From IMG/VR virus record IMGVR_UViG_3300045988_154391: a stretch of DNA of 64,000 nucleotides, one strand, 5' to 3'. The stretch is from a virus. Lineage: Duplodnaviria; Heunggongvirae; Uroviricota; Caudoviricetes. Both the position numbers and the translations under genes were made by a program. This document shows, piece by piece, positions 32,150-44,825 of the stretch (positions are counted from its first letter, which is position 1; every line of letters starts with the position of its first letter). The notes beneath the pieces were generated by a model that was not told the DNA's origin, searched no databases, and saw only the letters and a list, made by a program, of their open reading frames with translations.

Positions 32150-34728
32150 ATAGCCATAACGTCATGAGCAACACCACGAGTGTCTCCCTTACAAGACACA
32201 GAACGTCTGGCAAAGAGAGGTTCCACTCTGAAGCCTCTGTCCTGATAAAGTTCTCTGACGTTTGGCGCGCCACTGTTAGTAATGAGTACCTTTGCACCTC
32301 GGCGATGAGCATCCGTCAACAGAGACACCAGGCGTTTTTGCTCTTCAAACTTAAAGTCATGACCGGAATAGTTCGTGAACCCCTCTGTATTGGGGAGCGG
32401 TTCATACGGCGGATCGCAAAAGATGACATCTCCTTCTCCGGCAGCTTCAATCACTGCTGCAAAATCACCGCATACAAACTCAGACCGCCCTTCCGCACCG
32501 AGGAAGGCTTCCATCTCCTGTAATGGGAAATACGGAGTTTTATACTTCCCATAACCGACATTGAACTCACCGGCCTGGTTGTAGCGCGTCAATCCGTTAA
32601 AACAATGACGGTTCAGGAACAAAAACGCCGCTGCGCGATGTAAATCATCATAGACTTGTTTGTTAAACGCATTCCGTACTGCCAAGTATCCCTCCTGGGT
32701 GTTGTAGTCCAGGAAAAAACGATGTGCCAGAGTGATAAGTGAATGCTCCTCGCGTTGCAGAGTCTTGTAAAAGTTAATCAGGTCAGCATTCACATCATTT
32801 AGCAGATTTTCCTGGTATCCGGCATTCATGAAGACAGCTCCGCCACCGACGAAAGGTTCAATCAGGCGCTTCCCTTCTGGCAAATAGCGAAAGATTTGTT
32901 CCAGAACACCAAATTTTCCACCGGCCCATTTGAATATGGACCGTTCGAATTCTGCCGCTGGTTTAACTTTTCGCTCTTTTGTTTCACTTCCTTCTTTCTG
33001 CCGACATACGGCCTTAGTAATCCGATCGCCAATCCAGCGCATTACTGGTATTGCCATACTATTGCCGATCGCTTTGTAACGCGGTCCGTCAGCTGCAAGC
33101 ATCGCGGCCTCTTCTTCGCTTAAATCTGGATAGTGATTGCGAAGATATGCCAGTTCATCTGAATTAACTTTTTTACGCTTTTCCGTCGGGATCAACGTAT
33201 GCCCATCAGGAAAACCTTGAAGTCTCTCACATTCGACAGGGGTAAGACGGCGAACACTCATCATATGAGGTAAGTAACCATTCTCACCTAATTCGCCTTT
33301 TTCAATACTTTTCTGCCCCCCAAAAGATAACGCAACGGCGTCAGCTGTAGCGCGGGAATCAAGAGTAAAACTTATCTCTTTTTGCCACCCTTTACCTTGC
33401 GGTCCAGCATCATCTTTTCGCCCAATTTGTGCATGTTGTAGCGAATACGCAACAGCTGGTGGGCAGCCTGCATTTGGATTGCTATTAACAGAATTACCTG
33501 ATCGTAAAGTCGGAGAACATTCAATAGAAACATCTTGTCCATAATCTTTGCAGGAAAAAGCTACAACTGCATTTTCTTGACCATGGTTACGACCAATAGT
33601 ATGTGCCAATTCACAATTAACATCAGGATCTTGTGTTCCATGAATAGCCATCACCGCCAGATGTTCGTGACTTTCTTGTGATCTGGCACGAAGAGTGCCT
33701 GCACCTTCACGCCAACTACCAGCACCAGTACTACTGAAAACAGCTAAATCGGTTGCATCTTTAAAATCTCTGGCCTTGACAGTAGAAGCAGTCTCATCAT
33801 CAGCATATTCGCCAAATGCAACCATTCGATAAGCACCAACAAGCCCACTTCCGCGCTGCGCAAAAATCTCTTGGTTACTTGCACCGATTCCGCCAGTATT
33901 GTGTGACTGGTTAAGTGTCGGGTGAGGATTTACAGGGTTATCCCAATGGCTCCCGCTTTTAATGCCATTTCCAACATTTCCGGCAACTTCCTTCCCCTCG
34001 CCTCTGCTCGGCGCAATATTCCGGCGCACGCCTTCGAACTCAAAAAGTACCGTTGCGGGATCGAGGTCTGTTCGAGCACTTGCGACAACAAACACGCGTC
34101 GGCGTCGTTGTGCCACTCCGAAGTATTGGGCATCAAGGATTCTCCAGGCCACCTTTCGCTGCGGTCCATAAATACAACCACACTGCGGCCACTTTGGAAC
34201 ATGGCAACCGGTTTTGCCATCCCACCGCCAGAACGCGTTGCTTTTTCCTGATTCAGGTCGATCACCTGGTTCAAATGGCACATCTTCTCCAGCCAATCCG
34301 GCAAGGAAACATCCGAAGGCGTTATCTGCCGATGACAAGACTCCTGGGACATTTTCCCAGACGATAACGGCTGGTTTGAGAAATGACTCAGCCCGTTTGT
34401 CGTCAATTGCATTTGCAAGCTCCACATACTTTAAAGTTAGCGCGCCACGCTCATCATCAAGCCCACCACGTAATCCCGCGATACTGAATGCCTGACAAGG
34501 TGTTCCCCCGACGAGCACATCAGGGGATTCGATTTCCCCAGCCAGGACTTTTTTGGCAAGTTTTGTCATGTCGCCAAGGTTGGCGACATGGGGCCAGCGG
34601 TGCGCAAGAACGGCAGATGGAAAAGGCTCGATTTCAGCAAACCACGCCGGACGCATACCCAACGGTTCCCAGGCAATACTCGCGGCTTCAATTCCACTGC
34701 AAACAGATCCATAGCACAGCTCTTTCAC
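32140..34728 (-). CDS. dmt: Fused DNA methyltransferase: N-terminal C5-cytosine domain plus C-terminal Dam-like N6-adenine domain
   Basis: 862 aa; C5 motifs [27 protein letters not shown]; C-terminal FKWAGGK and DPPYEP. Confidence 0.85.
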
Positions 34729-35630
34729 TGCTTAGCCTCTCCACCAAGGGCATTTACCAGAGCATCAACCAGGCACGAAATTTCACTGGTCAACAGGAAG
34801 AAATCTGCGTCCAGTCGCTGCGCTACATCTTCACTATCAATATCAGAGTTCTGATCAAGCAATTCATCCGCAAATTTGACGCTGGTAAGGCTGAAGTTAT
34901 GGTCCAGTGTAAATTTAATGCGGTTCTGCCAGTCGAGTGCCAACTTAGTGACGAGCTTGCCAGCTTCCAGGTGTGTGGAAATTTCATCGCTTCCCAAATC
35001 CTGCTTTTTCACTCGGGCAATACCGCCATCCTCAAGCACTGCCTTAAGTTCTGCCGCATCCCCCATTTGAAATCCCTGTGGAGCACTACCATCACGTACC
35101 CAGTCGGTCAGCGTTAATTCAATGGGATTTTCAACACTCAGGGGAACAACAGGAAGAGAACCCAGAGACTTACGCATAAGCGCGAGCATATCCTCTGCCT
35201 GCCGCGCGCTGGCATTGATATAGATACGTTTAGTTGAACCGTCGTAGATCGCCTGGATAACAGAAAACTTTGAAAAAGCCCGTGGCAGAAGAGAATGCAG
35301 AACTTCGTCTTTCAGGGAGTCCTTCTCTGTTTTCTTCAGTTTACGCGCTTGTTCTTGCTCAAGTTTTTCAATTTTTTCTTGAATAGCTCGCTGGATAACC
35401 GGCGGGGGAAGAATTTTTGTTTCGCGCTTTGCTTCAACAAGGATAAAACCATTTCCATGCATAGCGATAACTTCGGAATTATCACCAAATGGAGATACAA
35501 AACCGAACTTGGCCATATCCTGACTACCGCATGGCGTGAAAAGGATCATTTTCTTTTTATCTTCTAAGTCGGTCAGATCCGCCTCACGAGAAAGTTTATA
35601 AATAGTAATGTTTTTCCAGTGCTTAAACAT
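34725..35630 (-). CDS. hrdC: RdgC-like recombination-associated protein
   Basis: About 301 aa from the [13 protein letters not shown] start; [13 protein letters not shown] and [24 protein letters not shown] are near-identical to host RdgC as I recall it. Confidence 0.85.
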
Positions 35631-35979
35631 GTTGTAACCCTTGAATATCAACCACAGAAAGCTCGTCTTTGTAGAAAAAGGCCAGGTTGTGGCACCCCCT
35701 CGTTTGAGCGTATGAGCTGGGACCAATTTCGTTCTTCCAGACAAATGGCTTCAAATCCGTACGGCGAAGCATAAAAACGCGATTTGTTCCGCTCTGATTC
35801 CCAATGAGGCAAAAGCCTTCTTTCACCTTGATAGCCTGCAAGTTGTCGAGTTCACCGCTGGTTACACGGCTATCGAACTCTTTGCGGCTTATTAGCTCCA
35901 TCTGCATCTGACGACTCCAAACAAATGCCCATTGAAGGGCGATGGCTGAATGGTACCGAAAATACGACATAAAAAACAA
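35623..35979 (-). CDS. Hypothetical protein upstream of hrdC
   Basis: 118-aa ORF whose start abuts an operator-like site; first gene of the apparent three-gene dmt operon. Confidence 0.4.
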
Positions 35980-35995
35980 TATTTATTAGAGCAAT
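35979..35995. promoter_or_regulatory. C1-operator-like 17-mer (16/17)
   Basis: AtATTTATTAGAGCAAT at the 5' end of the minus-strand operon. Confidence 0.5.
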
Positions 35996-36076
35996 TTTGC
36001 AATAGTTGAACTCCATGTAGACCACAAACAACCTGAGTTAAAATAACGAAAATCAGAGCAAATAATTGGTGATGAC

Positions 36077-36361
36077 GTGGCAAGTATTGCAACAAAAGAC
36101 AGCATTTGTTCGGGGCACGGAGGATTCCCATCCAGGCCTCCTGTAGAGAGTGAACCACTACTTAAAGTCAACGGAGTCGAAGTGTTAGTTGATGGTAAGC
36201 AATATGCACAGCATACCGATGGAAACAGTACGCACGGTGGGCAAGCTATATCAACCAGGGCATGGTTTACCGTCAATGGTAAAGGGATCGTATGCGTTGG
36301 TGACCCTGTTTCATGCGGATCTACCGTAGCGTCCGGAGACGGCCTGGTTCAGGTAAGTTAG
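36077..36361 (+). CDS. PAAR-like spike-tip protein (putative)
   Basis: 94 aa; ICSGHGG, HTDGNSTHGG and VGDPVSCGSTVASGDG resemble PAAR repeats; appears to start on GTG. Confidence 0.5.
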   Translation: MASIATKDSICSGHGGFPSRPPVESEPLLKVNGVEVLVDGKQYAQHTDGNSTHGGQAISTRAWFTVNGKGIVCVGDPVSCGSTVASGDGLVQVS

Positions 36362-36369
36362 GAGATATC

Positions 36370-37158
36370 ATGCTGGAAAAAGACTACCAGTTATCCGCAT
36401 ATAAAAAATTGGCTGCCGCCGGTGGGATGAAAACACCTGGTGCCATAACATCAGCACGAAACAGTGCTAACACAGCAAAACTGCTTGCAGAAGAATTGAC
36501 CGGATTAATTCTGGATACAATTGTCTATCCCGACACTATTACCAGCTATGTTTCAACGATCAGAACAACCACAACCGGCTTAACGAACATTGGAGAACTG
36601 GCAACTAAGCACGCGGACCTGTTGGCTGGTTATGCAGATCTGTCAATGCTGCTTCAACTCGATATTGGTTGGGATGTTTACTGCCGTGCTAATGAGCGAG
36701 AAGTATCAGAACTGCCGATCTCTATTGCCATTGGTGATGTGACTATTACTAAATCGCTTGAGGACGCTGTAAACGCGCTTAATACATCAAGTTTAGTCGC
36801 TGCTATGGGGGAGATTAACCAGACCCTTAACACTGGCTCAGGAAGCTCGTCAGGCTCTGGTTCAGGCGGCGGCACTGCCACTCCCCCACCAGCACTAACA
36901 GAAGAGCAAATTGAATCTCTGAAAGTAGCAACTGAACAGTTTGGGGTTGTTTTCAACCAGACAACAGCGCCCACAACTGCGTTACAACAGCAGTATGAAC
37001 GAGCGAATGAAAGCGCCAATGTAGCCATAACTGCTTATAACCATGCTATCGGTACTGCTCTTGCGGAAGCATCAGCAAATAAGGCCAGCACAGCCAGCGC
37101 AGTTGCTGCTTTGGTTCCTGATTCTGTTCTTGATGAATTAAACAAAGCGGCACAGTAA
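36370..37158 (+). CDS. Hypothetical protein with a Ser/Gly-rich linker
   Basis: ORF 36313..37158 trimmed to the ATG at 36370, which has an AGGAG 5-9 nt upstream. Confidence 0.45.
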   Translation: MLEKDYQLSAYKKLAAAGGMKTPGAITSARNSANTAKLLAEELTGLILDTIVYPDTITSYVSTIRTTTTGLTNIGELATKHADLLAGYADLSMLLQLDIGWDVYCRANEREVSELPISIAIGDVTITKSLEDAVNALNTSSLVAAMGEINQTLNTGSGSSSGSGSGGGTATPPPALTEEQIESLKVATEQFGVVFNQTTAPTTALQQQYERANESANVAITAYNHAIGTALAEASANKASTASAVAALVPDSVLDELNKAAQ

Positions 37159-37197
37159 CAAAGGACTTCATTGATAATTTTTTTTCAGGAGGAAGAC

Positions 37198-37620
37198 ATG
37201 TCATTCTTTTCTACGTTAAAAACAGCTTTGTCTTTGAAGGAGAAACTTGCTGCTACTGGTGTTCTTGTTCTGATTTGCGCACTTGTTGGTGCTGGGTTTG
37301 CATGGGAACGTCATCAGCTAAAGCAAGCCATCGAGAAAATTGGCAGTCTTGATCAGGCTGTTAAGGAACGTGATAAGTCAATAATGGATCTTAACCAGAC
37401 CATTGAGACGATGAACAAAGCAGAGCAACATTTTCACAGCCAGGAAGTGAAAAATGAATCAGAACAAGCCAAATATGCTGACAGGCAAATGGAACGAAAA
37501 GCTGAAGTTCAGAAACAACTGGTTGCGGCGGGTAATGTTCGCCAGCGCATTCCTGCTGACACTCAGCGGTTGCTCCGGGAGTCGATCAGCGAATTTAACG
37601 CCGACGCCGACAAAGGTTAA
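37198..37620 (+). CDS. Putative i-spanin (Rz-like)
   Basis: 140 aa from the ATG at 37198 (AGGAGG upstream); N-terminal transmembrane helix then coiled-coil periplasmic domain. Confidence 0.5.
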   Translation: MSFFSTLKTALSLKEKLAATGVLVLICALVGAGFAWERHQLKQAIEKIGSLDQAVKERDKSIMDLNQTIETMNKAEQHFHSQEVKNESEQAKYADRQMERKAEVQKQLVAAGNVRQRIPADTQRLLRESISEFNADADKG

Positions 37621-37786
37621 CCACCCTGCCCCCAAAAGTGCATTTATGTGCAGAATGCCAGAGTTTAGCAGTGAATATTTTGATGATCTGCCAGCGTATA
37701 TCCTCGATACAGAAACGATGCTGATGGGGATTAACAGGAAGAATCGCAACGTTAATGATTACAACCGCGCTATCAGCGGTAACTAA
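37535..37786 (+). CDS. Putative o-spanin lipoprotein (Rz1-like), overlapping the 3' end of the i-spanin in another frame
   Basis: 83 aa; MFASAFLLTLSGC signal with lipobox; Pro-rich mature part; starts 86 nt before the i-spanin stop and extends 166 nt past it. Confidence 0.5.
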   Translation: MFASAFLLTLSGCSGSRSANLTPTPTKVNHPAPKSAFMCRMPEFSSEYFDDLPAYILDTETMLMGINRKNRNVNDYNRAISGN

Positions 37787-37797
37787 AAGGGATTTTT

Positions 37798-38190
37798 ATG
37801 TCTGATAAAGTAACAGTAAAGCAAACTATCAACAAAGCGACTTCAATCTACAAAATTGAGCACATCACTGTTGGCAAGCCAGGATCTGAACAATACCGTC
37901 ATGCTTTCGAGCTTGCCGATCAGCTTGGTTTAAAACACCCGGATTGCATTGAGCATGTATTTCCGACCTATGCTGATGAGCAATGTACTCATGTTCTTAC
38001 CGAAGAGGATTTTTTCAGCACTGAAGAACGAGAAGGCGTTGATCGCTGCATTGGTGTGATTTGCTCTTCAGTGAGTTATGAGTTATTCCCTAATGTCCAT
38101 GAAAATGGTGGTATTGGATACCAATTCCTGTACGAAGGCGATGAGCTTAAATGTTATGAACATGGTCTTCTTATCGAAAGCGTAGAATAA
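37798..38190 (+). CDS. Hypothetical protein
   Basis: 130-aa ORF adjacent to the plasmid origin. Confidence 0.45.
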   Translation: MSDKVTVKQTINKATSIYKIEHITVGKPGSEQYRHAFELADQLGLKHPDCIEHVFPTYADEQCTHVLTEEDFFSTEEREGVDRCIGVICSSVSYELFPNVHENGGIGYQFLYEGDELKCYEHGLLIESVE

Positions 38191-38232
38191 TACCCTTCCT
38201 TCCAACCGGCTATGTTGGCCGGTTTATTCAAC

Positions 38233-38303
38233 TTATCCACAGCATAGATCCAATAAACAGATCCTAAAGAGAACCCAGGAAGATCCAAAGAAGATCCCGG
38301 ATC
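38233..38303. other. Plasmid origin region: consensus DnaA box plus five clustered GATC sites
   Basis: TTATCCACA at 38233-38241; GATC at 38247, 38260, 38282, 38293, 38300, mostly in AGATCC heptamers. Confidence 0.6.
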
Positions 38304-38343
38304 GCTGTAAGCCGCGCCATTTCTGGCCTGAAATGGGATCAAC

Positions 38344-38450
38344 ATTGACTATACGCGATTTTATGTTGACTGTGCACGATTTATTGTTGACTGCACGCGA
38401 TTTATTGTTGACTATACGCGACAGAAACATTGACTGTACGCGATTTTAGA
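38344..38450. repeat. Five direct iterons upstream of repA (incC-like)
   Basis: Five copies of (A/G)TTGACT(A/G)(T/C)(A/G)CGCGAT-like units at about 21-bp spacing. Confidence 0.7.
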
Positions 38451-38523
38451 GCCTGACTATTCACAGTTGTTGATAACTGCAATCCAGATGACGCCAGGCC
38501 GCGACACATATGGAGAAACCACG

Positions 38524-39408
38524 ATGCCGGAAGAAAATAAAGGCTTCCTTAGCGTTGAAGAAGTTGCAGGAAATACAGGAGAAATCCACAGCCTGAAACC
38601 CAATAACAATAGCACTATACAACCCATCGCTTTGTTGCGCTTAGGTGTGTTTGTGCCAACCTTAAAATCTACCAATGTGGCACTACGTCGCGGATCGTCA
38701 GTTACTACAAACACAACGAACGCAACCGAAGAACTATCAAGCCTCAAAATTGTTGAGCAGGAAGGCTATGAGGGAATTGAAATACATGGTCCACGCCTGG
38801 ATATGGATACTGATTTTAAGGTGTGGGTGGGCATAACCTCCGCGTTGTTTGACTACGCACCTGATGATGACGGCATAATCACCCTGCCATTCTCCGAGTT
38901 TGCCGATCGATGCGGCTATCCACGTAAGCGCCTTTCAAAGGCGTTCCGTAAAAGTATTGATGACTCTCTGACACGCATTCAGCAGACAGTTGTCAAATTC
39001 CGCTTCCCGGCGGCAAAAGGTCATCTCAATAACATTAACGTCAACTTGTTGGCATATAGCAGCCTGAATACCGAGCTTGATGTTATCGAGATCCAGCCGC
39101 AGAAACAGCTATCTGAACTTTACTATGTTGACTATAAGCGAATCCTGAAGCTGAAGATGCTGGATAAGCTCGGGCGCAAAGAGACGGCCAAGGTACTGTA
39201 TACATTCTTTGAGGCTCTACCTGCCAACCCGGCACCTGTCAGCATTGAGCGCCTTAGAGCAAGGCTTAATCTCAAATCATCCGTTAGCGTGCAAAATAGC
39301 GTTATCAGAAAAGCCATGAAAGATTTGGAAGCTATTGAATATCTTAAATTTTCAGAGATAAAAAACGGCAGGAAAATCGGCTTCCAGATCCATAAGCGCA
39401 ATCCATAA
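38524..39408 (+). CDS. repA: Plasmid replication initiator RepA
   Basis: 294 aa from the ATG at 38524 (GGAG upstream); P.ALLRLGVFVP and GPRLDMDTDFK resemble P1 RepA as I recall it. Confidence 0.8.
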   Translation: MPEENKGFLSVEEVAGNTGEIHSLKPNNNSTIQPIALLRLGVFVPTLKSTNVALRRGSSVTTNTTNATEELSSLKIVEQEGYEGIEIHGPRLDMDTDFKVWVGITSALFDYAPDDDGIITLPFSEFADRCGYPRKRLSKAFRKSIDDSLTRIQQTVVKFRFPAAKGHLNNINVNLLAYSSLNTELDVIEIQPQKQLSELYYVDYKRILKLKMLDKLGRKETAKVLYTFFEALPANPAPVSIERLRARLNLKSSVSVQNSVIRKAMKDLEAIEYLKFSEIKNGRKIGFQIHKRNP

Positions 39409-39409
39409 T

Positions 39410-39690
39410 ATTGACTATATGCGATAGCGAGAAGTTGACTATAGGCGACATTCGTTGACGCTGGTGGATTTTTGCTGGCGTCAATATTCTGCAAGCTGCT
39501 ATTGAGATGGCTTTTAGGGTCATTTCATCGCGTATAGTCAACGTTTCTCCCGACAATATCTTACATAGTCGATTTTTGGTGGAGTTAAATCGACTACAGT
39601 CAACTTTTGACTGTAGTCACATCGCGCATAGTCAACTATTCACATTAACTTTCGCGCATAGTCAACATTTGCGCGGTTCTCATCAAGCAG
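39410..39690. repeat. Iteron array downstream of repA in both orientations (incA-like copy-control locus)
   Basis: About 8-9 copies of TTGACTATA(T/G)GCGA and its reverse complement. Confidence 0.6.
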
Positions 39691-39700
39691 TGGTATTGAT

Positions 39701-40510
39701 ATGCAAGAAGAGAAACAACACTACCTCTACGTTCTGGTGCCGGAGAACGGAGATACTTTTAAAATCGGCATTTCATGTGGTCCATTGGCACGGTTTAAAG
39801 GGCTACAAGTGAATCCCGATTTTGCGCTTTCACGGGTCTATCGTGGTACGCGTTTGGCAATAGTTAATCTTGAGCGGGCTTTACACGCAACCTTTTTCCC
39901 CTGGAATGCGCCGTGGGAGAAAAGCGCCGGTGGCGGGCATACTGAATGGTTTACACGAGAGTGTCTTGATAAGGTTTTGGCTCATATCGAATATCTAAAT
40001 GATATGTGGGGAGGGATTCTCGAGCGGATTAAGTCGAATGATTTACTTCAGCGTCCAGTAGATGCTGCTCGCTCTTTCGAAAAAGAACTGGATGTTACTT
40101 CTATCGTGACTTTCAAAGATGACGCAGGAATGAGGGATGTGGCTTATGTCTCCATATCTGGCTATGAACCTGACGCGATCCGCGCTCAATGTGAATTGCT
40201 GAAAGCGATGTTTACGCTTCGGACTAAATATCCCTGGGAGACAGGGCGGGTGTGCTTCCCTATGGAAGAGTTAACCGCCACCATTGATTCCCAGCTTTAC
40301 CACGATAATCCAGAGAAGTTTTTTAGCCTTTTAGCCGGTAATGGGCTTAACTGTGTGTCCGGACTGGGGCGAAGTAGAATCCAACATGCCTCGCTCTTCG
40401 GTCCCTTCTTTTACGATCGAAACGGGTGCTTTGAGGCTGAACTTCCGGCGCTTACGCGTGCTATAGATACTATCGATTTCGAACGATTATTCGCAGCTCT
40501 TAACAAATAA
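39701..40510 (+). CDS. T5orf172/MUG113-type (GIY-YIG-like) domain protein
   Basis: 269 aa; N-terminal YLYVLVPENGDTFKIGIS...RFKGLQ...GGGHTEWF matches the T5orf172 signature as I recall it; lies between the iterons and parA and has its own terminator. Confidence 0.5.
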   Translation: MQEEKQHYLYVLVPENGDTFKIGISCGPLARFKGLQVNPDFALSRVYRGTRLAIVNLERALHATFFPWNAPWEKSAGGGHTEWFTRECLDKVLAHIEYLNDMWGGILERIKSNDLLQRPVDAARSFEKELDVTSIVTFKDDAGMRDVAYVSISGYEPDAIRAQCELLKAMFTLRTKYPWETGRVCFPMEELTATIDSQLYHDNPEKFFSLLAGNGLNCVSGLGRSRIQHASLFGPFFYDRNGCFEAELPALTRAIDTIDFERLFAALNK

Positions 40511-40517
40511 CACTGAT

Positions 40518-40538
40518 GCCCCTGAACGGGGCTTTTTT
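40518..40538 (+). terminator. Rho-independent terminator
   Basis: GCCCC-tgaac-GGGGC followed by TTTTTT, 8 nt after the stop. Confidence 0.65.
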
Positions 40539-40678
40539 GTGCCCTCCTTGCAACTCTCTATCGTGCAAAATGAACCAAACATGCAGAGAATGCTATGTAC
40601 AAGCATCTACGCATACATTATTATTTTATGCAGCATTTTTAATTAAATTCAAAAATACAGCATAAAGGATGACTTTCG

Positions 40679-41875
40679 ATGAGTGATTCCAGCCAGCTTC
40701 ACAAGGTTGCTCAAAGAGCAAACAGAATGCTCAATGTTCTGACTGAACAAGTACAGTTGCAAAAGGATGAGCTACACGCGAACGAGTTTTACCAGGTCTA
40801 TGCGAAAGCGGCACTGGCAAAACTGCCTCTACTGACTCGAGCGAACGTTGACTATGCCGTAAGTGAAATGGAAGAAAAGGGTTATGTTTTCGATAAACGC
40901 CCTGCTGGCTCTTCAATGAAATATGCGATGTCAATTCAGAACATCATTGACATATATGAACATCGCGGAGTGCCAAAATACCGGGATCGCTACAGCGAAG
41001 CGTATGTGATTTTCATCTCCAATCTTAAAGGCGGTGTGTCAAAAACTGTATCGACGGTTTCTCTGGCGCATGCAATGCGTGCTCACCCTCATCTTCTGAT
41101 GGAAGATTTAAGGATTCTGGTTATTGACCTTGATCCGCAATCTTCAGCAACGATGTTTTTAAGCCATAAACACTCTATTGGTATCGTAAACGCAACATCT
41201 GCACAGGCTATGTTGCAGAATGTAAGCCGTGAAGAGCTGTTAGAGGAGTTTATTGTTCCTTCTGTTGTACCTGGGGTTGACGTTATGCCTGCGTCGATTG
41301 ACGATGCCTTTATTGCATCCGATTGGAGAGAGCTGTGCAATGAGCATCTACCGGGTCAGAACATCCATGCTGTCCTGAAAGAAAATGTGATTGATAAGCT
41401 GAAGAGCGATTATGACTTTATCCTCGTTGATAGTGGTCCTCACCTTGACGCCTTCCTGAAAAATGCTTTGGCCTCGGCCAATATACTGTTTACACCTCTG
41501 CCGCCAGCAACTGTCGATTTCCACTCATCGCTTAAATACGTTGCCCGCCTTCCTGAGTTGGTGAAACTCATTTCGGATGAAGGCTGCGAGTGCCAGCTTG
41601 CGACTAACATTGGTTTTATGTCCAAGTTGAGTAACAAGGCAGACCATAAGTATTGCCATAGCCTGGCTAAAGAAGTGTTCGGTGGGGATATGCTCGATGT
41701 CGTCCTCCCTCGCCTTGACGGTTTTGAACGTTGCGGCGAGTCTTTTGACACTGTTATTTCAGCTAACCCGGCAACGTATGTTGGTAGTGCTGATGCATTG
41801 AAGAACGCGCGAATTGCCGCGGAAGATTTTGCTAAAGCAGTTTTTGACCGTATTGAATTTATCAGATCTAACTGA
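40679..41875 (+). CDS. parA: Partition ATPase ParA (type Ia, with N-terminal HTH extension)
   Basis: 398 aa; deviant Walker A KGGVSKT. Confidence 0.9.
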   Translation: MSDSSQLHKVAQRANRMLNVLTEQVQLQKDELHANEFYQVYAKAALAKLPLLTRANVDYAVSEMEEKGYVFDKRPAGSSMKYAMSIQNIIDIYEHRGVPKYRDRYSEAYVIFISNLKGGVSKTVSTVSLAHAMRAHPHLLMEDLRILVIDLDPQSSATMFLSHKHSIGIVNATSAQAMLQNVSREELLEEFIVPSVVPGVDVMPASIDDAFIASDWRELCNEHLPGQNIHAVLKENVIDKLKSDYDFILVDSGPHLDAFLKNALASANILFTPLPPATVDFHSSLKYVARLPELVKLISDEGCECQLATNIGFMSKLSNKADHKYCHSLAKEVFGGDMLDVVLPRLDGFERCGESFDTVISANPATYVGSADALKNARIAAEDFAKAVFDRIEFIRSN

Positions 41876-41891
41876 GGAGTAAGAAACCCCC

Positions 41892-42893
41892 ATGTCAAAG
41901 AAAAACAGACCAACAATTGGGCGAACCCTTAATCCTTCAATATTAAGCGGATTTGATAGTTCTTCAGCCTCTGGCGATCGAATCGAGCAGGTATTCAAGT
42001 TATCAACTGGTCGCCAGGCCACATTTATCGAGGAGATAATTCCTCCGAACCAGGTAGAAAGCGATACCTTTATTGATCAGCATAACAACGGGCGTGACCA
42101 GGCATCTCTTACGCCAAAATCATTAAAAAGTATCCGAAGCACTATTAAGCATCAGCAATTTTACCCTGCAATAGGTGTTAGACGGGCTACAGGGAAAATT
42201 GAAATTTTGGATGGTTCCCGGCGTCGAGCTTCTGCCATCTTAGAGAACGTAGGGTTGCGGGTTTTAGTCACGGACCAGGAGATCAGCGTTCAGGAAGCGC
42301 AAAATTTAGCGAAAGACGTTCAGACAGCATTGCAGCACAGCATTCGAGAAATAGGTCTGCGTTTGATGCGAATGAAAAATGATGGGATGAGTCAGAAGGA
42401 TATTGCAGCCAAAGAAGGACTGTCTCAGGCGAAGGTCACGCGTGCTCTCCAGGCAGCGAGTGCTCCGGAAGAATTAGTCGCCCTTTTCCCTGTGCAGTCG
42501 GAATTAACCTTTTCGGACTACAAAACGCTTTGTGCTGTTGGCGACGAAATGGGGAACAAGAATTTAGAGTTTGATCAGCTTATTCAAAACATATCCCCGG
42601 AAATAAACGACATCTTATCCATTGAAGAAATGGCCGAAGATGAAGTTAAAAATAAAATCCTGCGCTTGATAACAAAGGAAGCCTCACTACTCACGGATAA
42701 AGGTTCTAAAGATAAGTCCGTAGTTACTGAATTATGGAAATTTGAGGACAAGGATCGCTTTGCAAGGAAGCGCGTGAAAGGCCGTGCATTTTCTTATGAG
42801 TTTAATCGACTTTCAAAAGAGCTACAGGAAGAACTCGACAGGATGATTGGGCATATCCTTAGAAAGAGCCTCGATAAAAAGCCGAAGCCTTAA
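41892..42893 (+). CDS. parB: Partition protein ParB
   Basis: 333 aa; immediately downstream of parA and followed by parS-like heptamers. Confidence 0.9.
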   Translation: MSKKNRPTIGRTLNPSILSGFDSSSASGDRIEQVFKLSTGRQATFIEEIIPPNQVESDTFIDQHNNGRDQASLTPKSLKSIRSTIKHQQFYPAIGVRRATGKIEILDGSRRRASAILENVGLRVLVTDQEISVQEAQNLAKDVQTALQHSIREIGLRLMRMKNDGMSQKDIAAKEGLSQAKVTRALQAASAPEELVALFPVQSELTFSDYKTLCAVGDEMGNKNLEFDQLIQNISPEINDILSIEEMAEDEVKNKILRLITKEASLLTDKGSKDKSVVTELWKFEDKDRFARKRVKGRAFSYEFNRLSKELQEELDRMIGHILRKSLDKKPKP

Positions 42894-42894
42894 A

Positions 42895-42985
42895 CTTTCG
42901 CCATTCAAATTTCACTGTTAACCTACTGTTTTTAAAGTAAATCAATCTAAAATTTCAAGGTGAAATCGCCACGATTTCACCTTGG
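42895..42985. other. parS partition site (box A heptamers and box B hexamers around an AT-rich spacer)
   Basis: TCGCCA at 42898 and ATTTCAC at 42909; then GTGAAAT, TCGCCA, ATTTCAC at 42960-42980. Confidence 0.65.
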
Positions 42986-43097
42986 ATTTTACCTTCCTCC
43001 CCTACTCCCGAAAAAAATAAAAAAATTGCTTGTCACGAGAAAGTCAACAAGTGACTTTCAATAAAATCTCTTCCGAAAAGGGATTCACACAAGTGCC

Positions 43098-44825
43098 TTG
43101 TGTTTAAGGAAGAGTAAATTGAGTAACTTACGCGAATACCAGAATCGTATTGCAGATATCGCAAAACGCTCTAAAGCTGTGCTTGGCTGGGCAAGCACTG
43201 CGCAGTTCGGTACTGATAACCAATTCATTAAAGATGATGCCGCGCGTGCCGCATCTATCCTTGAAGCTGCACGTAAAGACCCGGTTTTTGCGGGTATCTC
43301 TGATAATGCCACCGCTCAAATCGCTACAGCGTGGGCAAGTGCACTGGCTGACTACGCCGCAGCACATAAATCTATGCCGCGTCCGGAAATTCTGGCCTCC
43401 TGCCACCAGACGCTGGAAAACTGCCTGATTGAGTCCACCCGCAATAGCATGGATGCCACTAATAAAGCGATGCTGGAATCCGTCGCAGCAGAGATGATGA
43501 GCGTTTCTGACGGTGTTATGCGTCTGCCTTTATTCCTCGCGATGATCCTGCCTGTTCAGTTGGGGGCCGCTACCGCTGATGCGTGTACCTTCATTCCGGT
43601 TACGCGTGACCAGTCAGACATCTATGAAGTCTTTAACGTGGCAGGTTCCTCTTTTGGTTCTTATGCTGCTGGTGATGTTCTGGACATGCAATCCGTCGGG
43701 GTGTACAGCCAGTTACGTCGCCGCTATGTGCTGGTGGCAAGCTCCGATGGCACCAGCAAAACCGCAACCTTCAAGATGGAAGACTTCGAAGGCCAGAATG
43801 TACCAATCCGAAAAGGTCGCACTAACATCTACGTTAACCGTATTAAGTCTGTTGTTGATAACGGTTCCGGCAGCCTACTTCACTCGTTTACTAATGCTGC
43901 TGGTGAGCAAATCACTGTTACCTGCTCTCTGAACTACAACATTGGTCAGATTGCCCTGTCGTTCCCCAAAGCGCCGGATAAAGGCACTGAGATCGCAATT
44001 GAGACGGAAATCAATATTGAAGCCGCTCCTGAGCTGATCCCGCTGATCAACCACGAAATGAAGAAATACACCCTGTTCCCAAGTCAGTTCGTTATCGCGG
44101 CTGAGCACACGGTACAGGCGGCGTATGAAGCACAGCGTGAATTTGGTCTGGACCTGGGTTCCCTACAGTTCCGCACCCTGAAGGAATACCTGTCTCATGA
44201 ACAGGATATGCTGCGTCTTCGCATCATGATCTGGCGCACTCTTGCGACCGACACCTTTGACATCGCTCTGCCGGTTAACCAGTCCTTTGATGTATGGGCA
44301 ACCATCATTCGTGGCAAATTCCAGACTGTATATCGCGACATTATTGAGCGCGTTAAATCTTCTGGTGCGATGGGGATGTTTGCTGGTGCTGATGCAGCAT
44401 CTTTCTTCAAACAGTTGCCGAAGGATTTCTTCCAGCCAGCCGAAGACTATATCCAGACTCCGTATGTTCACTACATCGGTACCCTGTTCGGTAACGTGAA
44501 AGTGTACGAAGTACCTGCTGGTATTTGTAAGAACTTAACGACAGAGAACATTCAGTTCAGCTCGATGGATGTGCTGTGCTACGTCCGTGATGAAAATCCG
44601 GGTAAAGCAGGCTTTGTGACTGGTGATGCTGTCCCGGCTATCCCGTTCCAGCATCCGACCACTCCGGCGCTGGTCAACCGTACCACACTGTGGGGTTCGG
44701 CTATCAACGATATGCACCCACGCAACGGCGCTGATTACTTCACTCGTGTAACGCTGACAATGGCCAAAAAAGGCGGGCTTAACTTTATAAGCGGCGACAC
44801 GATTGATGCCGGTGACTCTGAGTAA
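43098..44825 (+). CDS. Large structural protein, possibly the major head protein (P1 gene 23 position)
   Basis: Track ORF starts on TTG at 43098; a second TTG at 43119 has a better AGGAAGAG upstream; functional call is from synteny only. Confidence 0.4.
   Translation: MCLRKSKLSNLREYQNRIADIAKRSKAVLGWASTAQFGTDNQFIKDDAARAASILEAARKDPVFAGISDNATAQIATAWASALADYAAAHKSMPRPEILASCHQTLENCLIESTRNSMDATNKAMLESVAAEMMSVSDGVMRLPLFLAMILPVQLGAATADACTFIPVTRDQSDIYEVFNVAGSSFGSYAAGDVLDMQSVGVYSQLRRRYVLVASSDGTSKTATFKMEDFEGQNVPIRKGRTNIYVNRIKSVVDNGSGSLLHSFTNAAGEQITVTCSLNYNIGQIALSFPKAPDKGTEIAIETEINIEAAPELIPLINHEMKKYTLFPSQFVIAAEHTVQAAYEAQREFGLDLGSLQFRTLKEYLSHEQDMLRLRIMIWRTLATDTFDIALPVNQSFDVWATIIRGKFQTVYRDIIERVKSSGAMGMFAGADAASFFKQLPKDFFQPAEDYIQTPYVHYIGTLFGNVKVYEVPAGICKNLTTENIQFSSMDVLCYVRDENPGKAGFVTGDAVPAIPFQHPTTPALVNRTTLWGSAINDMHPRNGADYFTRVTLTMAKKGGLNFISGDTIDAGDSE

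Follow-up and report, generated by a model that had tools for sequence, protein, structure and literature searches.

The replicon and its organization

The 64,000-nucleotide stretch analysed here (the window; virus record IMGVR_UViG_3300045988_154391, Caudoviricetes) contains a repA gene set between two groups of short repeats. The locus raises the question of whether this segment is a complete replicon of the kind known from phage P1 and, if so, of which type. A first-pass annotation had described it as a complete iteron-controlled replicon, and each of the elements named there was recovered: a perfect DnaA box, a GATC cluster, five direct iterons, repA and a downstream iteron array are the parts of a unit spanning 38233-39667. 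We are highly confident that a P1-like phage-plasmid uses this unit, which is of the p0111 type, as its low-copy plasmid-prophage replicon, and that the unit belongs to the iteron-controlled theta replicons of the P1/RepFIB family. Its features are as follows.

38233..38241, + strand: DnaA box TTATCCACA, perfect consensus, left end of the origin
38246..38340, no strand: Dam-site cluster made up of a G+C-rich spacer and six GATC sites, four within AGATCC heptamer cores, one within GGATCG and the sixth just 5' of iteron 1
38345-59, 38366-80, 38387-401, 38408-22 and 38430-44, + strand: incC-like array of five direct iterons with a 15-bp core, start-to-start distances 21/21/21/22 bp
38387..38415, + strand: weak candidate repA promoter (-35 TTGACT at 38387-92, 17-bp spacer, -10 GACTAT at 38410-15)
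38457-65 (+ strand) and 38468-76 (- strand): two DnaA boxes with one mismatch each, CTATTCACA and TTATCAACA, respectively, between the iterons and repA
38524..39408, + strand: repA, iteron-binding replication initiator by homology, 294 aa, with GGAG at 38512-15
39128..39142, + strand: iteron-like site inside repA, TTGACTATAAGCGAA, matrix score 17.7
39411-25, 39435-49 and a divergent copy, TTGACGCTGGTGGAT, at 39455-69, + strand: direct part of the incA-like array
39527-41, 39589-603, 39621-35 and 39651-65, - strand: inverted part of the incA-like array, four strong copies, with one decayed copy at 39558-72

The P1 layout ascribed to the locus was borne out when the order of elements was compared with the annotated P1 GenBank record, from which the P1 anatomy was taken. 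The oriR/incC-repA-incA order is shared (DnaA box, Dam sites, five iterons, repA, and an array that is first direct and then inverted), as is the iteron spacing, iterons 14-10 of P1 incC being set 21/21/21/22 bp apart. The flanking genes upfA and parAB are also common to both. P1 oriR differs in having two tandem DnaA boxes on the left, where the window has one. An Rfam scan of 37500-41000 gave no match, so this region holds no known antisense-RNA control element.

DnaA boxes and Dam sites of the origin

Perfect matches to TTATNCACA occur three times in the 64 kb, and the box at 38233-38241 is one of them. In an alignment with P1 oriR it falls on the annotated DnaA site, and it is kept in all relatives; in the contig L012, which carries the replicon on a non-P1 backbone, it forms the left limit of homology. 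The six GATC sites of the adjoining cluster (38247, 38260, 38282, 38293, 38300 and 38337; AGATCC in four cases) fall within about 95-100 bp and constitute the densest such cluster of the window, a count of six being reached in 1 of 200 shuffles. Box and cluster had both been recognized previously, and both stand. The segment 38246-38340 is 76% identical to the P1 segment containing five annotated Dam sites and 77% identical to a Klebsiella FIB(K)-like origin. It is presumed to be the region of unwinding and of SeqA sequestration; A+T makes up only 55% of the DNA reaching from the DnaA box through the last heptamer, however, so that no obvious unwinding element stands out.

By count alone, the two right-hand boxes with one mismatch do not reach significance. 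P1 carries DnaA-box-like sequences where the window has 38457-38476, and L012 has a perfect TTATCCACA on the - strand where the window has 38468-76.

Upstream iterons and a candidate repA promoter

All five direct iterons of the first-pass annotation were found, and the iteron core of the window is TTGACTRYRCGCGAT. The unit proposed there, TTGACT(A/G)(T/C)(A/G)CGCGAT, is exact in four of the five upstream copies, but the second copy reads ...GCACGAT. With up to two mismatches allowed, this pattern matched the window 14 times (2.5 +/- 1.6 expected), with 12 of these matches falling in 38345-39665. A 19-nt weight matrix was also built from the 11 clear copies, which score 24-28 bits, with no site outside 38343-39667 scoring above 10; since these very sites went into the training of the matrix, its ranking of them is circular, and the independent test is the mismatch-pattern count. 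The upstream iterons (38345-38444) are probably the RepA-binding sites of the origin as well as the repA operator. In L012 the block retains its 100-bp length.

The iteron-like site inside repA scores between the true iterons (at least 24) and background (at most 10). It is unchanged in L012, even though only 41% of the repA codons are identical between the window and L012.

Iterons 3 and 4 together make up the candidate promoter TTGACT-17-GACTAT, which was read by eye, agrees with the consensus at 8 of 12 positions and has a poor -10 element. The corresponding iteron pair of L012 forms the same candidate promoter, and the annotated PrepA of P1 likewise lies among iterons (12-10). A consensus scan for sigma-70 promoters on the + strand 5' of repA returned none, and PrepA is therefore placed here only tentatively.

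The RepA protein

The RefSeq start of repA is the ATG at 38524, with GGAG 8 nt upstream, and the gene ends at 39408. A lack of similarity between RepA and P1-family initiators had been named as the observation that would overturn the assignment of the locus. By BLASTP, residues 5-294 of RepA align with residues 2-280 of P1 RepA at 41% identity (E 2e-71), that is, from end to end. The protein also belongs to PHROG 775 (E 2e-134) and matches Pfam Rep3_C with 27.3 bits (cutoff 21.1), while Rep3_N, with 22.0 bits, falls just below its gathering score of 22.4; NCBIfam gave no match for RepA. It is 100% identical to the RepA proteins of SJ46 and JL22 and 85% identical to that of L012.

An AlphaFold model of RepA (pLDDT 71) predicts a tandem winged-helix (WH1-WH2) fold. 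The best Foldseek matches of the model in the PDB were RctB, RepE, pi and pPS10 RepA, with TrfA also present (E 5e-7 to 3e-3). TM scores over the whole protein against the solved initiators are about 0.3, and only WH1 superposes well (TM 0.6, target-normalized), so the resemblance is supported at the level of domains only. A phmmer search of the PDB with RepA yielded chance-level matches only (E > 0.3). Thus, for RepE of F, pi of R6K, RepA of pPS10 and domains 2-3 of RctB from Vibrio chromosome 2, the predicted fold is alike while sequence similarity is not detectable.

The array downstream of repA

The downstream array begins 2 nt past the repA stop codon. It had been described as an array of inverted iterons, which is accurate for the four strong copies and the decayed one, but three direct copies come first. 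In P1, too, incA begins at the repA stop, and it comprises 3 direct and 6 inverted iterons, 9 in all; the window has 3 plus 4-5, or 8-9. The divergent direct copy at 39455-69 is kept in the IncHI2-typed plasmid pHum4b and in L012, although the spacers of L012 have diverged, and the decayed copy at 39558-72 aligns with a good iteron in L012. In the Escherichia albertii plasmid pEA50_2 the array is shorter by exactly one unit.

Such fluid composition, with one copy decayed in the window and intact in L012, one missing from L012 and one unit deleted in E. albertii, is what might be seen if 39411-39665 had no part in copy control but was a second origin, a site related to partition or the debris of decaying repeats. 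We consider this very unlikely. The position of the array, its direct-then-inverted pattern and its copy number mirror P1 incA, and its iterons are better conserved between the window and L012 (78%) than the spacers (50%). Moreover, neither a DnaA box nor a GATC cluster accompanies the array, and the partition site parS lies elsewhere, 3' of parB, and is P1-like. An incA-like copy-control array is the reading retained below.

Assignment to the p0111 type

The window replicon is the p0111 type of P1-like phage-plasmids, as found in pO111_2 of E. coli O111:H- 11128 and in SJ46, RCS47 and JL22. Over 38100-39800 the window is 99.4% identical to pO111_2 (NC_013370.1; 1,701 bp), 98.6% to SJ46, 98.5% to JL22 and 97.8% to RCS47, and we found no difference of substance between these p0111 phages or plasmids and the window. 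Assignment to p0111 requires that the rep gene of a reference plasmid be matched at high nucleotide identity, as it is by the window; the reference is AP010962.1 (PMC11165635), which we infer to be the same plasmid as NC_013370.1. P1-like phage-plasmids carry either an IncY or a p0111 replicon, and JL22 has been typed as p0111 (PMC9603915; also PMC11165635). The type is named for P1-like phage-plasmids in several papers (PMC9603915, PMC11165635, PMC5241659), and SJ46 RepA was reported to be 42% identical to P1 RepA (PMC5241659). These papers on P1-like phage-plasmids name the rep gene only, and the searchable literature yielded no description of p0111 iterons or origin anatomy.

The replicons RepFIB, IncFIB(K) and SSU5 of Enterobacterales have initiators of the same family and iterons that flank repA on both sides, and several records annotate the present protein as 'RepFIB replication protein A'. 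It might accordingly be supposed that a RepFIB or FIB(K) plasmid replicon was captured recently by a P1-like phage, and that the locus is an IncFIB member interacting with F-type or Klebsiella FIB plasmids. The nearest relatives outside p0111, at 44-53% RepA identity, are indeed the initiators of a Proteus plasmid, of FIB(K)-like plasmids, of E. coli RepFIB and of SSU5 (44-49% for the RepFIB, FIB(K) and SSU5 initiators; 47% for E. coli RepFIB and 49% for a Klebsiella FIB(K)-like initiator). The Klebsiella FIB(K)-like origin shares the DnaA box, the GATC heptamers and the spacer (77% identical) in an identical DnaA/GATC layout, and has related iterons, TGTCTACTGTATGCGAT, at 21-22-bp spacing that resemble those of the window. 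We nevertheless regard this reading as highly improbable. All outside identities are at most 53%, well separated from the p0111 cluster: of the best 5,000 plasmid records, 394 have a RepA at least 99% identical, 4 one at 80-99%, and the others fall below 60%. The Klebsiella iterons differ from those of the window at several core positions and those of E. coli RepFIB (ACTGACTACAGCTTATAT) are quite different; the cores, TGTCTAYTGTAYGCKAY for Klebsiella, ACTGACTACAGCTTATAT for E. coli RepFIB and CCACTGTAGAGAGTAG for SSU5, differ from the window's. The RepA proteins of these replicons are longer (about 300-340 aa) and their backbones differ. The window thus has neither the RepA nor the iterons of RepFIB (F/P307) or IncFIB(K), and these comparisons argue that p0111 is a sister lineage of RepFIB/FIB(K) and not a member.

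That the locus is the IncY replicon itself, a diverged P1/P7 repA allele of unchanged control specificity that would be incompatible with P1 through incA/incC, can practically be dismissed: layout and iteron spacing are as in P1, the flanks are P1 DNA and P1 matches the left half of the origin at 76% identity, but this last identity is family-wide (77% to the Klebsiella FIB(K)-like origin), the iteron cores, TTGACTRYRCGCGAT against the GATGTGTGCTGGAGGGAAA of the P1 19-mers, have no recognizable sequence in common, RepA is farther from P1 than from the RepFIB, FIB(K) and SSU5 initiators, and IncY and p0111 are handled as separate types (PMC9603915, PMC11165635). With iterons unlike those of P1 and a RepA only 41% identical to it, slightly nearer to RepFIB/FIB(K)/SSU5, the p0111 replicon is a P1-family replicon that is not IncY.

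The first-pass annotation had left the incompatibility type open, a position that stands; the iterons do not match the P1 19-mers. Because both the iterons and RepA differ from those of P1, no cross-reaction in replication control is expected with IncY elements. The P1-type partition determinant incB (parS with ParB) is nevertheless present: ParA is identical to P1 ParA at 397 of 398 residues and ParB at 330 of 333, and parS is nearly identical. Given this P1-type incB, replicon specificity alone does not predict compatibility with P1. The partition determinant incB is an incompatibility determinant separate from the replicon. The ParAB proteins of SJ46 and RCS47 have been called P7-like and distant from P1 (PMC5241659), which does not fit the present data, as ParA and ParB of both the window and SJ46 are at least 99% identical to those of P1.

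Limits of the swapped segment and the T5orf172 gene

On either side of the swapped segment the window runs collinear with P1, at 96% identity over 34007-38327 and at 99% over 40577-44085. Homology to P1 DNA stops at 38327, just 5' of iteron 1, and resumes at 40577, so that the swapped segment comprises only 38328-40576 (2,249 bp, vs 1,491 bp in P1). The 75-85% identity to P1 within 38200-38327 was considered as evidence of a recombination junction inside the origin; this was rejected, as the Klebsiella FIB(K)-like origin matches the segment equally well. In E. albertii and in pHum4b the flank changes at about 38217, and the true junction with P1 DNA probably lies within 38050-38230.

At the right end of the swapped segment lies one further gene.

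39701..40532, + strand: T5orf172 (GIY-YIG-like) gene (39701-40510; Pfam T5orf172, PHROG 2876) with its terminator

This 810-bp gene, located between repA and parA, is extra relative to P1. It is cargo, outside the core replicon. All six of the P1-like p0111 loci examined have it alongside the replicon, the p0111 phages and plasmid compared above sharing the same gene between repA and parA, and it is absent from P1 and from two non-P1 backbones with this replicon (L008 and L012). Its product matched nothing in PADLOC or in NCBIfam. The gene adjoins the right recombination boundary at 40576. Conceivably, though in our estimation very unlikely, the T5orf172 protein is a homing-type nuclease that would drive conversion to the p0111 cassette by cutting the IncY allele in P1-like elements that co-reside or co-infect. 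Such an activity would account for repeated switches of replicon type along the phylogeny of P1-like phage-plasmids, on whose tree 17 replicon-type changes have been inferred (PMC11165635).

Conservation of the cis elements and a model of replication control

Between the window and L012, third codon positions of repA are 48% identical and the leader 49%. The DnaA/GATC segment, by comparison, is 92% identical, the iteron block 84% and the incA iterons 78%, with their spacers at 50%. The cis elements are strongly conserved even in relatives that are close to saturation at silent sites, which indicates purifying selection. The locus is a clean example of modular replicon evolution: the origin half that serves host factors (DnaA box and Dam sites) is 76-92% identical across relatives and is kept, while the specificity module of iterons and RepA diverges.

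By analogy with P1, RepA monomers would bind the five origin iterons and, together with host DnaA, open the adjoining GATC-rich DNA, upon which DnaB and the replisome would load. Immediate re-initiation would then be blocked at the GATC cluster through Dam methylation and sequestration by SeqA. RepA bound at the origin would also cover its own promoter and repress repA, and the downstream array would titrate RepA and pair with the origin (handcuffing), keeping copy number near one per chromosome. We infer all of these steps by transfer from P1.

Distribution and use

The p0111 replicon is already known and catalogued, and it is a common element; the finding is therefore real but ordinary. Placing the window as a P1-like phage-plasmid of p0111 type is of small practical value. 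The class is widespread in E. coli and Salmonella, sometimes with ESBL or mcr genes aboard. A base-level map of the origin and its control arrays is a modest addition, the typing literature having been searched without one coming to light, and could help in building P1/PAC-compatible mini-replicons or vectors and in designing curing tools based on incompatibility.

The diversity of relatives was taken from a protein search and contig look-ups, and the RepA search of genome contigs matched a single locus. One replicon module was found on three backbones: P1-like, pHum4b and the L012 contig. In pHum4b the replicon is 90% identical to that of the window at the DNA level; its repA is fragmented, with many single-base indels, and was left out of the protein inference. 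E. coli plasmids include sequences 100% identical to the replicon segment, and in a 92.8-kb plasmid that is 100% identical over 38100-39800 the p0111-type segment is the sole typed replicon. The segment is present in 415 of 5,426 complete E. coli genomes, at a median of one place per genome and a maximum of two. PLSDB/MOB-suite labels the p0111 replicon 'IncHI1B'.

Identity and distribution of the replicon

The iteron-controlled replicon at 38233-39667 belongs, by sequence, to a type already in the catalogues: it is the p0111 replicon known from P1-like phage-plasmids, and the databases contain sequences identical to it. Over 38100-39800, identity is 100% with CP098199 and CP057976, both E. 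coli plasmids, and 99.4% with plasmid pO111_2 from E. coli O111:H- 11128; among phages, identity is 99.0% to vB_EcoM-Ro157c2YLVW, 98.6% to SJ46, 98.5% to JL22 and 97.8% to RCS47, with RepA 100% identical in the window, SJ46 and JL22. The core segment is present in 415 of 5,426 complete E. coli genomes (median one place per genome, maximum two) and lies on plasmids at 457 of its 465 places; most of the records sampled were ~77-175 kb. Among the best 5,000 plasmid-collection records for RepA relatives, 394 were at least 99% identical, four were intermediate and the remainder fell below 60%.

P1-like phage-plasmids carry an IncY or a p0111 replicon in roughly equal numbers (PMC9603915), and replicon type has switched repeatedly along their phylogeny (PMC11165635). 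SJ46 RepA was reported to be 42% identical to P1 RepA (PMC5241659). These three papers and PMC6906374 contain no description of p0111 iterons or origin, and a full-text literature search for 'p0111' together with 'iteron' returned only one paper, which is unrelated. The only additions made here are a base-level map of the p0111 origin with its control arrays, and evidence for their conservation. MOB-suite typing via PLSDB calls this replicon 'IncHI1B' (PLSDB records L001, L009-L011 and L016) and PlasmidFinder-based papers call it p0111; the former label is a naming quirk and a possible source of error in automated typing.

Organization of the origin, repA and control arrays

Elements were mapped by direct reading of 37800-40200 and by repeat scans. 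The first-pass annotation had described a complete P1-type replicon, and every element that it listed was found: DnaA box, GATC cluster, five direct iterons, repA and a downstream array. Its description of that array as inverted holds for four copies and a decayed fifth; three others are direct, so that the orientation is mixed. Two further DnaA boxes, each with one mismatch, and an iteron-like site inside repA are additional to that annotation.

Elements of the p0111 replicon and the adjoining gene (window coordinates)
38233-38241: DnaA box TTATCCACA, perfect consensus
38247, 38260, 38282, 38293, 38300, 38337: six GATC sites, four as AGATCC
38345, 38366, 38387, 38408, 38430: starts of five direct iterons (incC-like), core TTGACTRYRCGCGAT
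38457-38465 and 38468-38476: one-mismatch DnaA boxes between the iterons and repA
38524-39408: repA, ATG start, 294 aa, GGAG 8 nt upstream of the start
39128-39142: iteron-like site TTGACTATAAGCGAA inside repA (codons 202-206), matrix score 17.7
39411, 39435: starts of direct iterons, downstream (incA-like) array
39455-39469: divergent third direct copy TTGACGCTGGTGGAT, downstream array
39527-39541, 39589-39603, 39621-39635, 39651-39665: inverted iterons, downstream array
39558-39572: decayed inverted iteron, downstream array
39701-40510: T5orf172 (GIY-YIG-like) gene, 269 aa, with its own terminator to 40532, between the downstream array and parA

The perfect DnaA box is one of three such perfect matches in the whole 64 kb, and the GATC cluster is the densest in the window, six per 100 bp being reached in 1 of 200 shuffles. 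Copy 2 of the origin iterons deviates, reading GCACGAT. A 19-nucleotide weight matrix gave 24-28 bits for 11 clear copies and at most 10 outside the region; this ranking is circular, the matrix having been trained on the same 11 copies, and the real test against chance is therefore the mismatch-pattern count. Allowing up to two mismatches, 14 matches to the iteron pattern were found where 2.5 +/- 1.6 were expected, 12 of them inside 38345-39665. A promoter scan found none for repA; the best candidate for PrepA combines TTGACT (38387-38392) and GACTAT (38410-38415), from iterons 3 and 4, across a 17-bp spacer.

The repA start at 38524 is also the RefSeq start in an identical plasmid. In Pfam, RepA scored over the cutoff for Rep3_C and slightly below it for Rep3_N. 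AlphaFold, supplied with 35 homologues, gave a model of mean pLDDT 71 in which the N-terminal 60 residues are disordered. The closest solved structures were RctB domains 2-3, RepE, pi, pPS10 RepA and TrfA; because whole-chain TM-scores were only ~0.3 and WH1 alone superposed well, this likeness is at the domain level only.

Relationship to P1 and RepFIB replicons

In the annotated P1 record (NC_005856), a DnaA site, five Dam sites, five incC iterons, repA and nine incA iterons follow in the same order, and the start-to-start spacing of the incC iterons (21, 21, 21 and 22 bp) is identical in P1 and the window, bearing out the proposed P1-type layout. P1 PrepA is annotated among the incC iterons, and P1 incA runs from the repA stop codon on, with three direct iterons followed by six inverted ones. 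RepA aligned with P1 RepA from end to end at 41% identity (E 2e-71), and the assignment to the P1 family stands. The P1 iterons (GATGTGTGCTGGAGGGAAA), on the other hand, share nothing recognisable with those of the window.

The nearest initiators outside the type belong to a Proteus plasmid (53%), Klebsiella FIB(K)-like plasmids (49%), E. coli RepFIB (47%) and SSU5-type phage-plasmids (45%), all slightly closer to the window RepA than P1 RepA is. A relationship to the iterons of the window can be recognised both in the Klebsiella repeats (TGTCTACTGTATGCGAT) and in the Proteus ones (TTGAYGCTRG..GAT). On these comparisons, therefore, the replicon is a separate branch of the P1/RepFIB family and no recent derivative of the P1 replicon.

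Selection on cis-acting sites

A protein search identified an 85% identical RepA (P0003), encoded by L012, an E. coli contig of 91 kb, where its neighbours differ from those in the window. The L012 iterons (TTGACTATGTGCGAT) follow the same plan, five plus three direct and four inverted. Identity between the two was 48% at repA third codon positions, 49% in the repA leader and 50% in the downstream spacers, versus 92% (101/110) in the DnaA/GATC segment, 84% in the origin iteron block (100 bp long in both) and 78% in the downstream iterons. These alignments show selection acting on the cis sites. The site at 39128-39142 is unchanged in L012 although just 41% of repA codons are identical, and may be an extra RepA-binding site.

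RepA residues 151-190 (window 38974-39093), a predicted WH1 beta-hairpin, hold 18 of the 44 amino-acid differences, 14 of them in 151-180; WH2 is nearly invariant, with three. The iterons differ at core positions 9-10 only. We infer that these two sets of changes may represent co-variation of protein and site.

The downstream array begins 2 nucleotides past the repA stop codon. Its divergent copy (39455-39469) is off the local consensus, yet is kept in L012 and in pHum4b, an IncHI2-typed plasmid; it resembles the Proteus iterons. E. albertii pEA50_2 has a 30-bp deletion (39621-39650) of exactly one inverted iteron unit, which makes the number of iterons in the control array a natural polymorphism. 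In L012 the copy decayed in the window is intact and the 39621-39635 copy is missing. As read from these alignments, iteron number in this array is fluid.

Proposed mechanism

Parts, arrangement and P1 homology were read directly; the mechanism is modelled on the P1 replicon, reportedly worked out by Abeles, Austin, Chattoraj and co-workers. RepA monomers on the five origin iterons, with DnaA, would open the GATC-rich DNA. Dam methylation would be needed, and the hemimethylated origin would be sequestered by SeqA. RepA bound to iterons would repress the repA promoter, which is the weakest step. The downstream array would limit copy number by titrating RepA and by pairing with the origin, the handcuffing said to have been treated by Das and Chattoraj in 2004, a paper that appears among those listed in PMC6312765.

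Partition genes and incompatibility

ParA and ParB match their P1 counterparts at 397 of 398 and 330 of 333 residues, and parS is nearly identical (40679-42990). SJ46 ParA, ParB and parS are likewise P1-type, in disagreement with the statement that the Par proteins of SJ46 and RCS47 resemble those of P7 and are distant from P1's (PMC5241659). Since parS and ParB are of the P1 type, partition (incB) incompatibility with P1 is expected even though the replicon differs; replication-control incompatibility is not expected, because iterons and RepA both differ.

Junctions with P1 DNA

The window is collinear with P1 at 34007-38327 (96%) and 40577-44085 (99%). Between them, 38328-40576 has no DNA-level match to P1 apart from a short stretch within repA. 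This swapped segment (2,249 bp; 1,491 bp in P1) contains the iterons, repA, the downstream array and the extra T5orf172 gene with its terminator. Upstream lie P1 genes upfC, upfB, ppfA, mlp and upfA, and downstream parA, parB, parS and gene 23. The T5orf172 gene, at the segment's right edge, was carried by all six of the P1-like p0111 loci that were compared; P1 lacks it, as do two non-P1 backbones bearing the same replicon. Its product matches PHROG 2876 (unknown function) and had no PADLOC or NCBIfam match.

On the left, identity to P1 falls from 98-100% (to 38049) to ~90% (38050-38199) and ~75% (38200-38330) before alignment ends. These steps were at first read as a recombination junction inside the origin, which was rejected since the segment is similarly close to the origin of a Klebsiella FIB(K)-like plasmid with a 49% identical RepA: for 38233-38344, from DnaA box to iterons, identity is 76% with P1, 77% with that origin and 92% with L012 (shuffled controls, at most 60%). 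The left flank switches at ~38217 in pEA50_2 and pHum4b. It follows that the origin's host-factor half is conserved throughout the family and belongs to the incoming module, and the junction is probably at the 3' end of upfA or in its terminator. Collinearity with P1 is briefly interrupted a second time, upstream, at 33257-34006 in the hrdC/dmt area, where the sole match is 168 bp at 73%.
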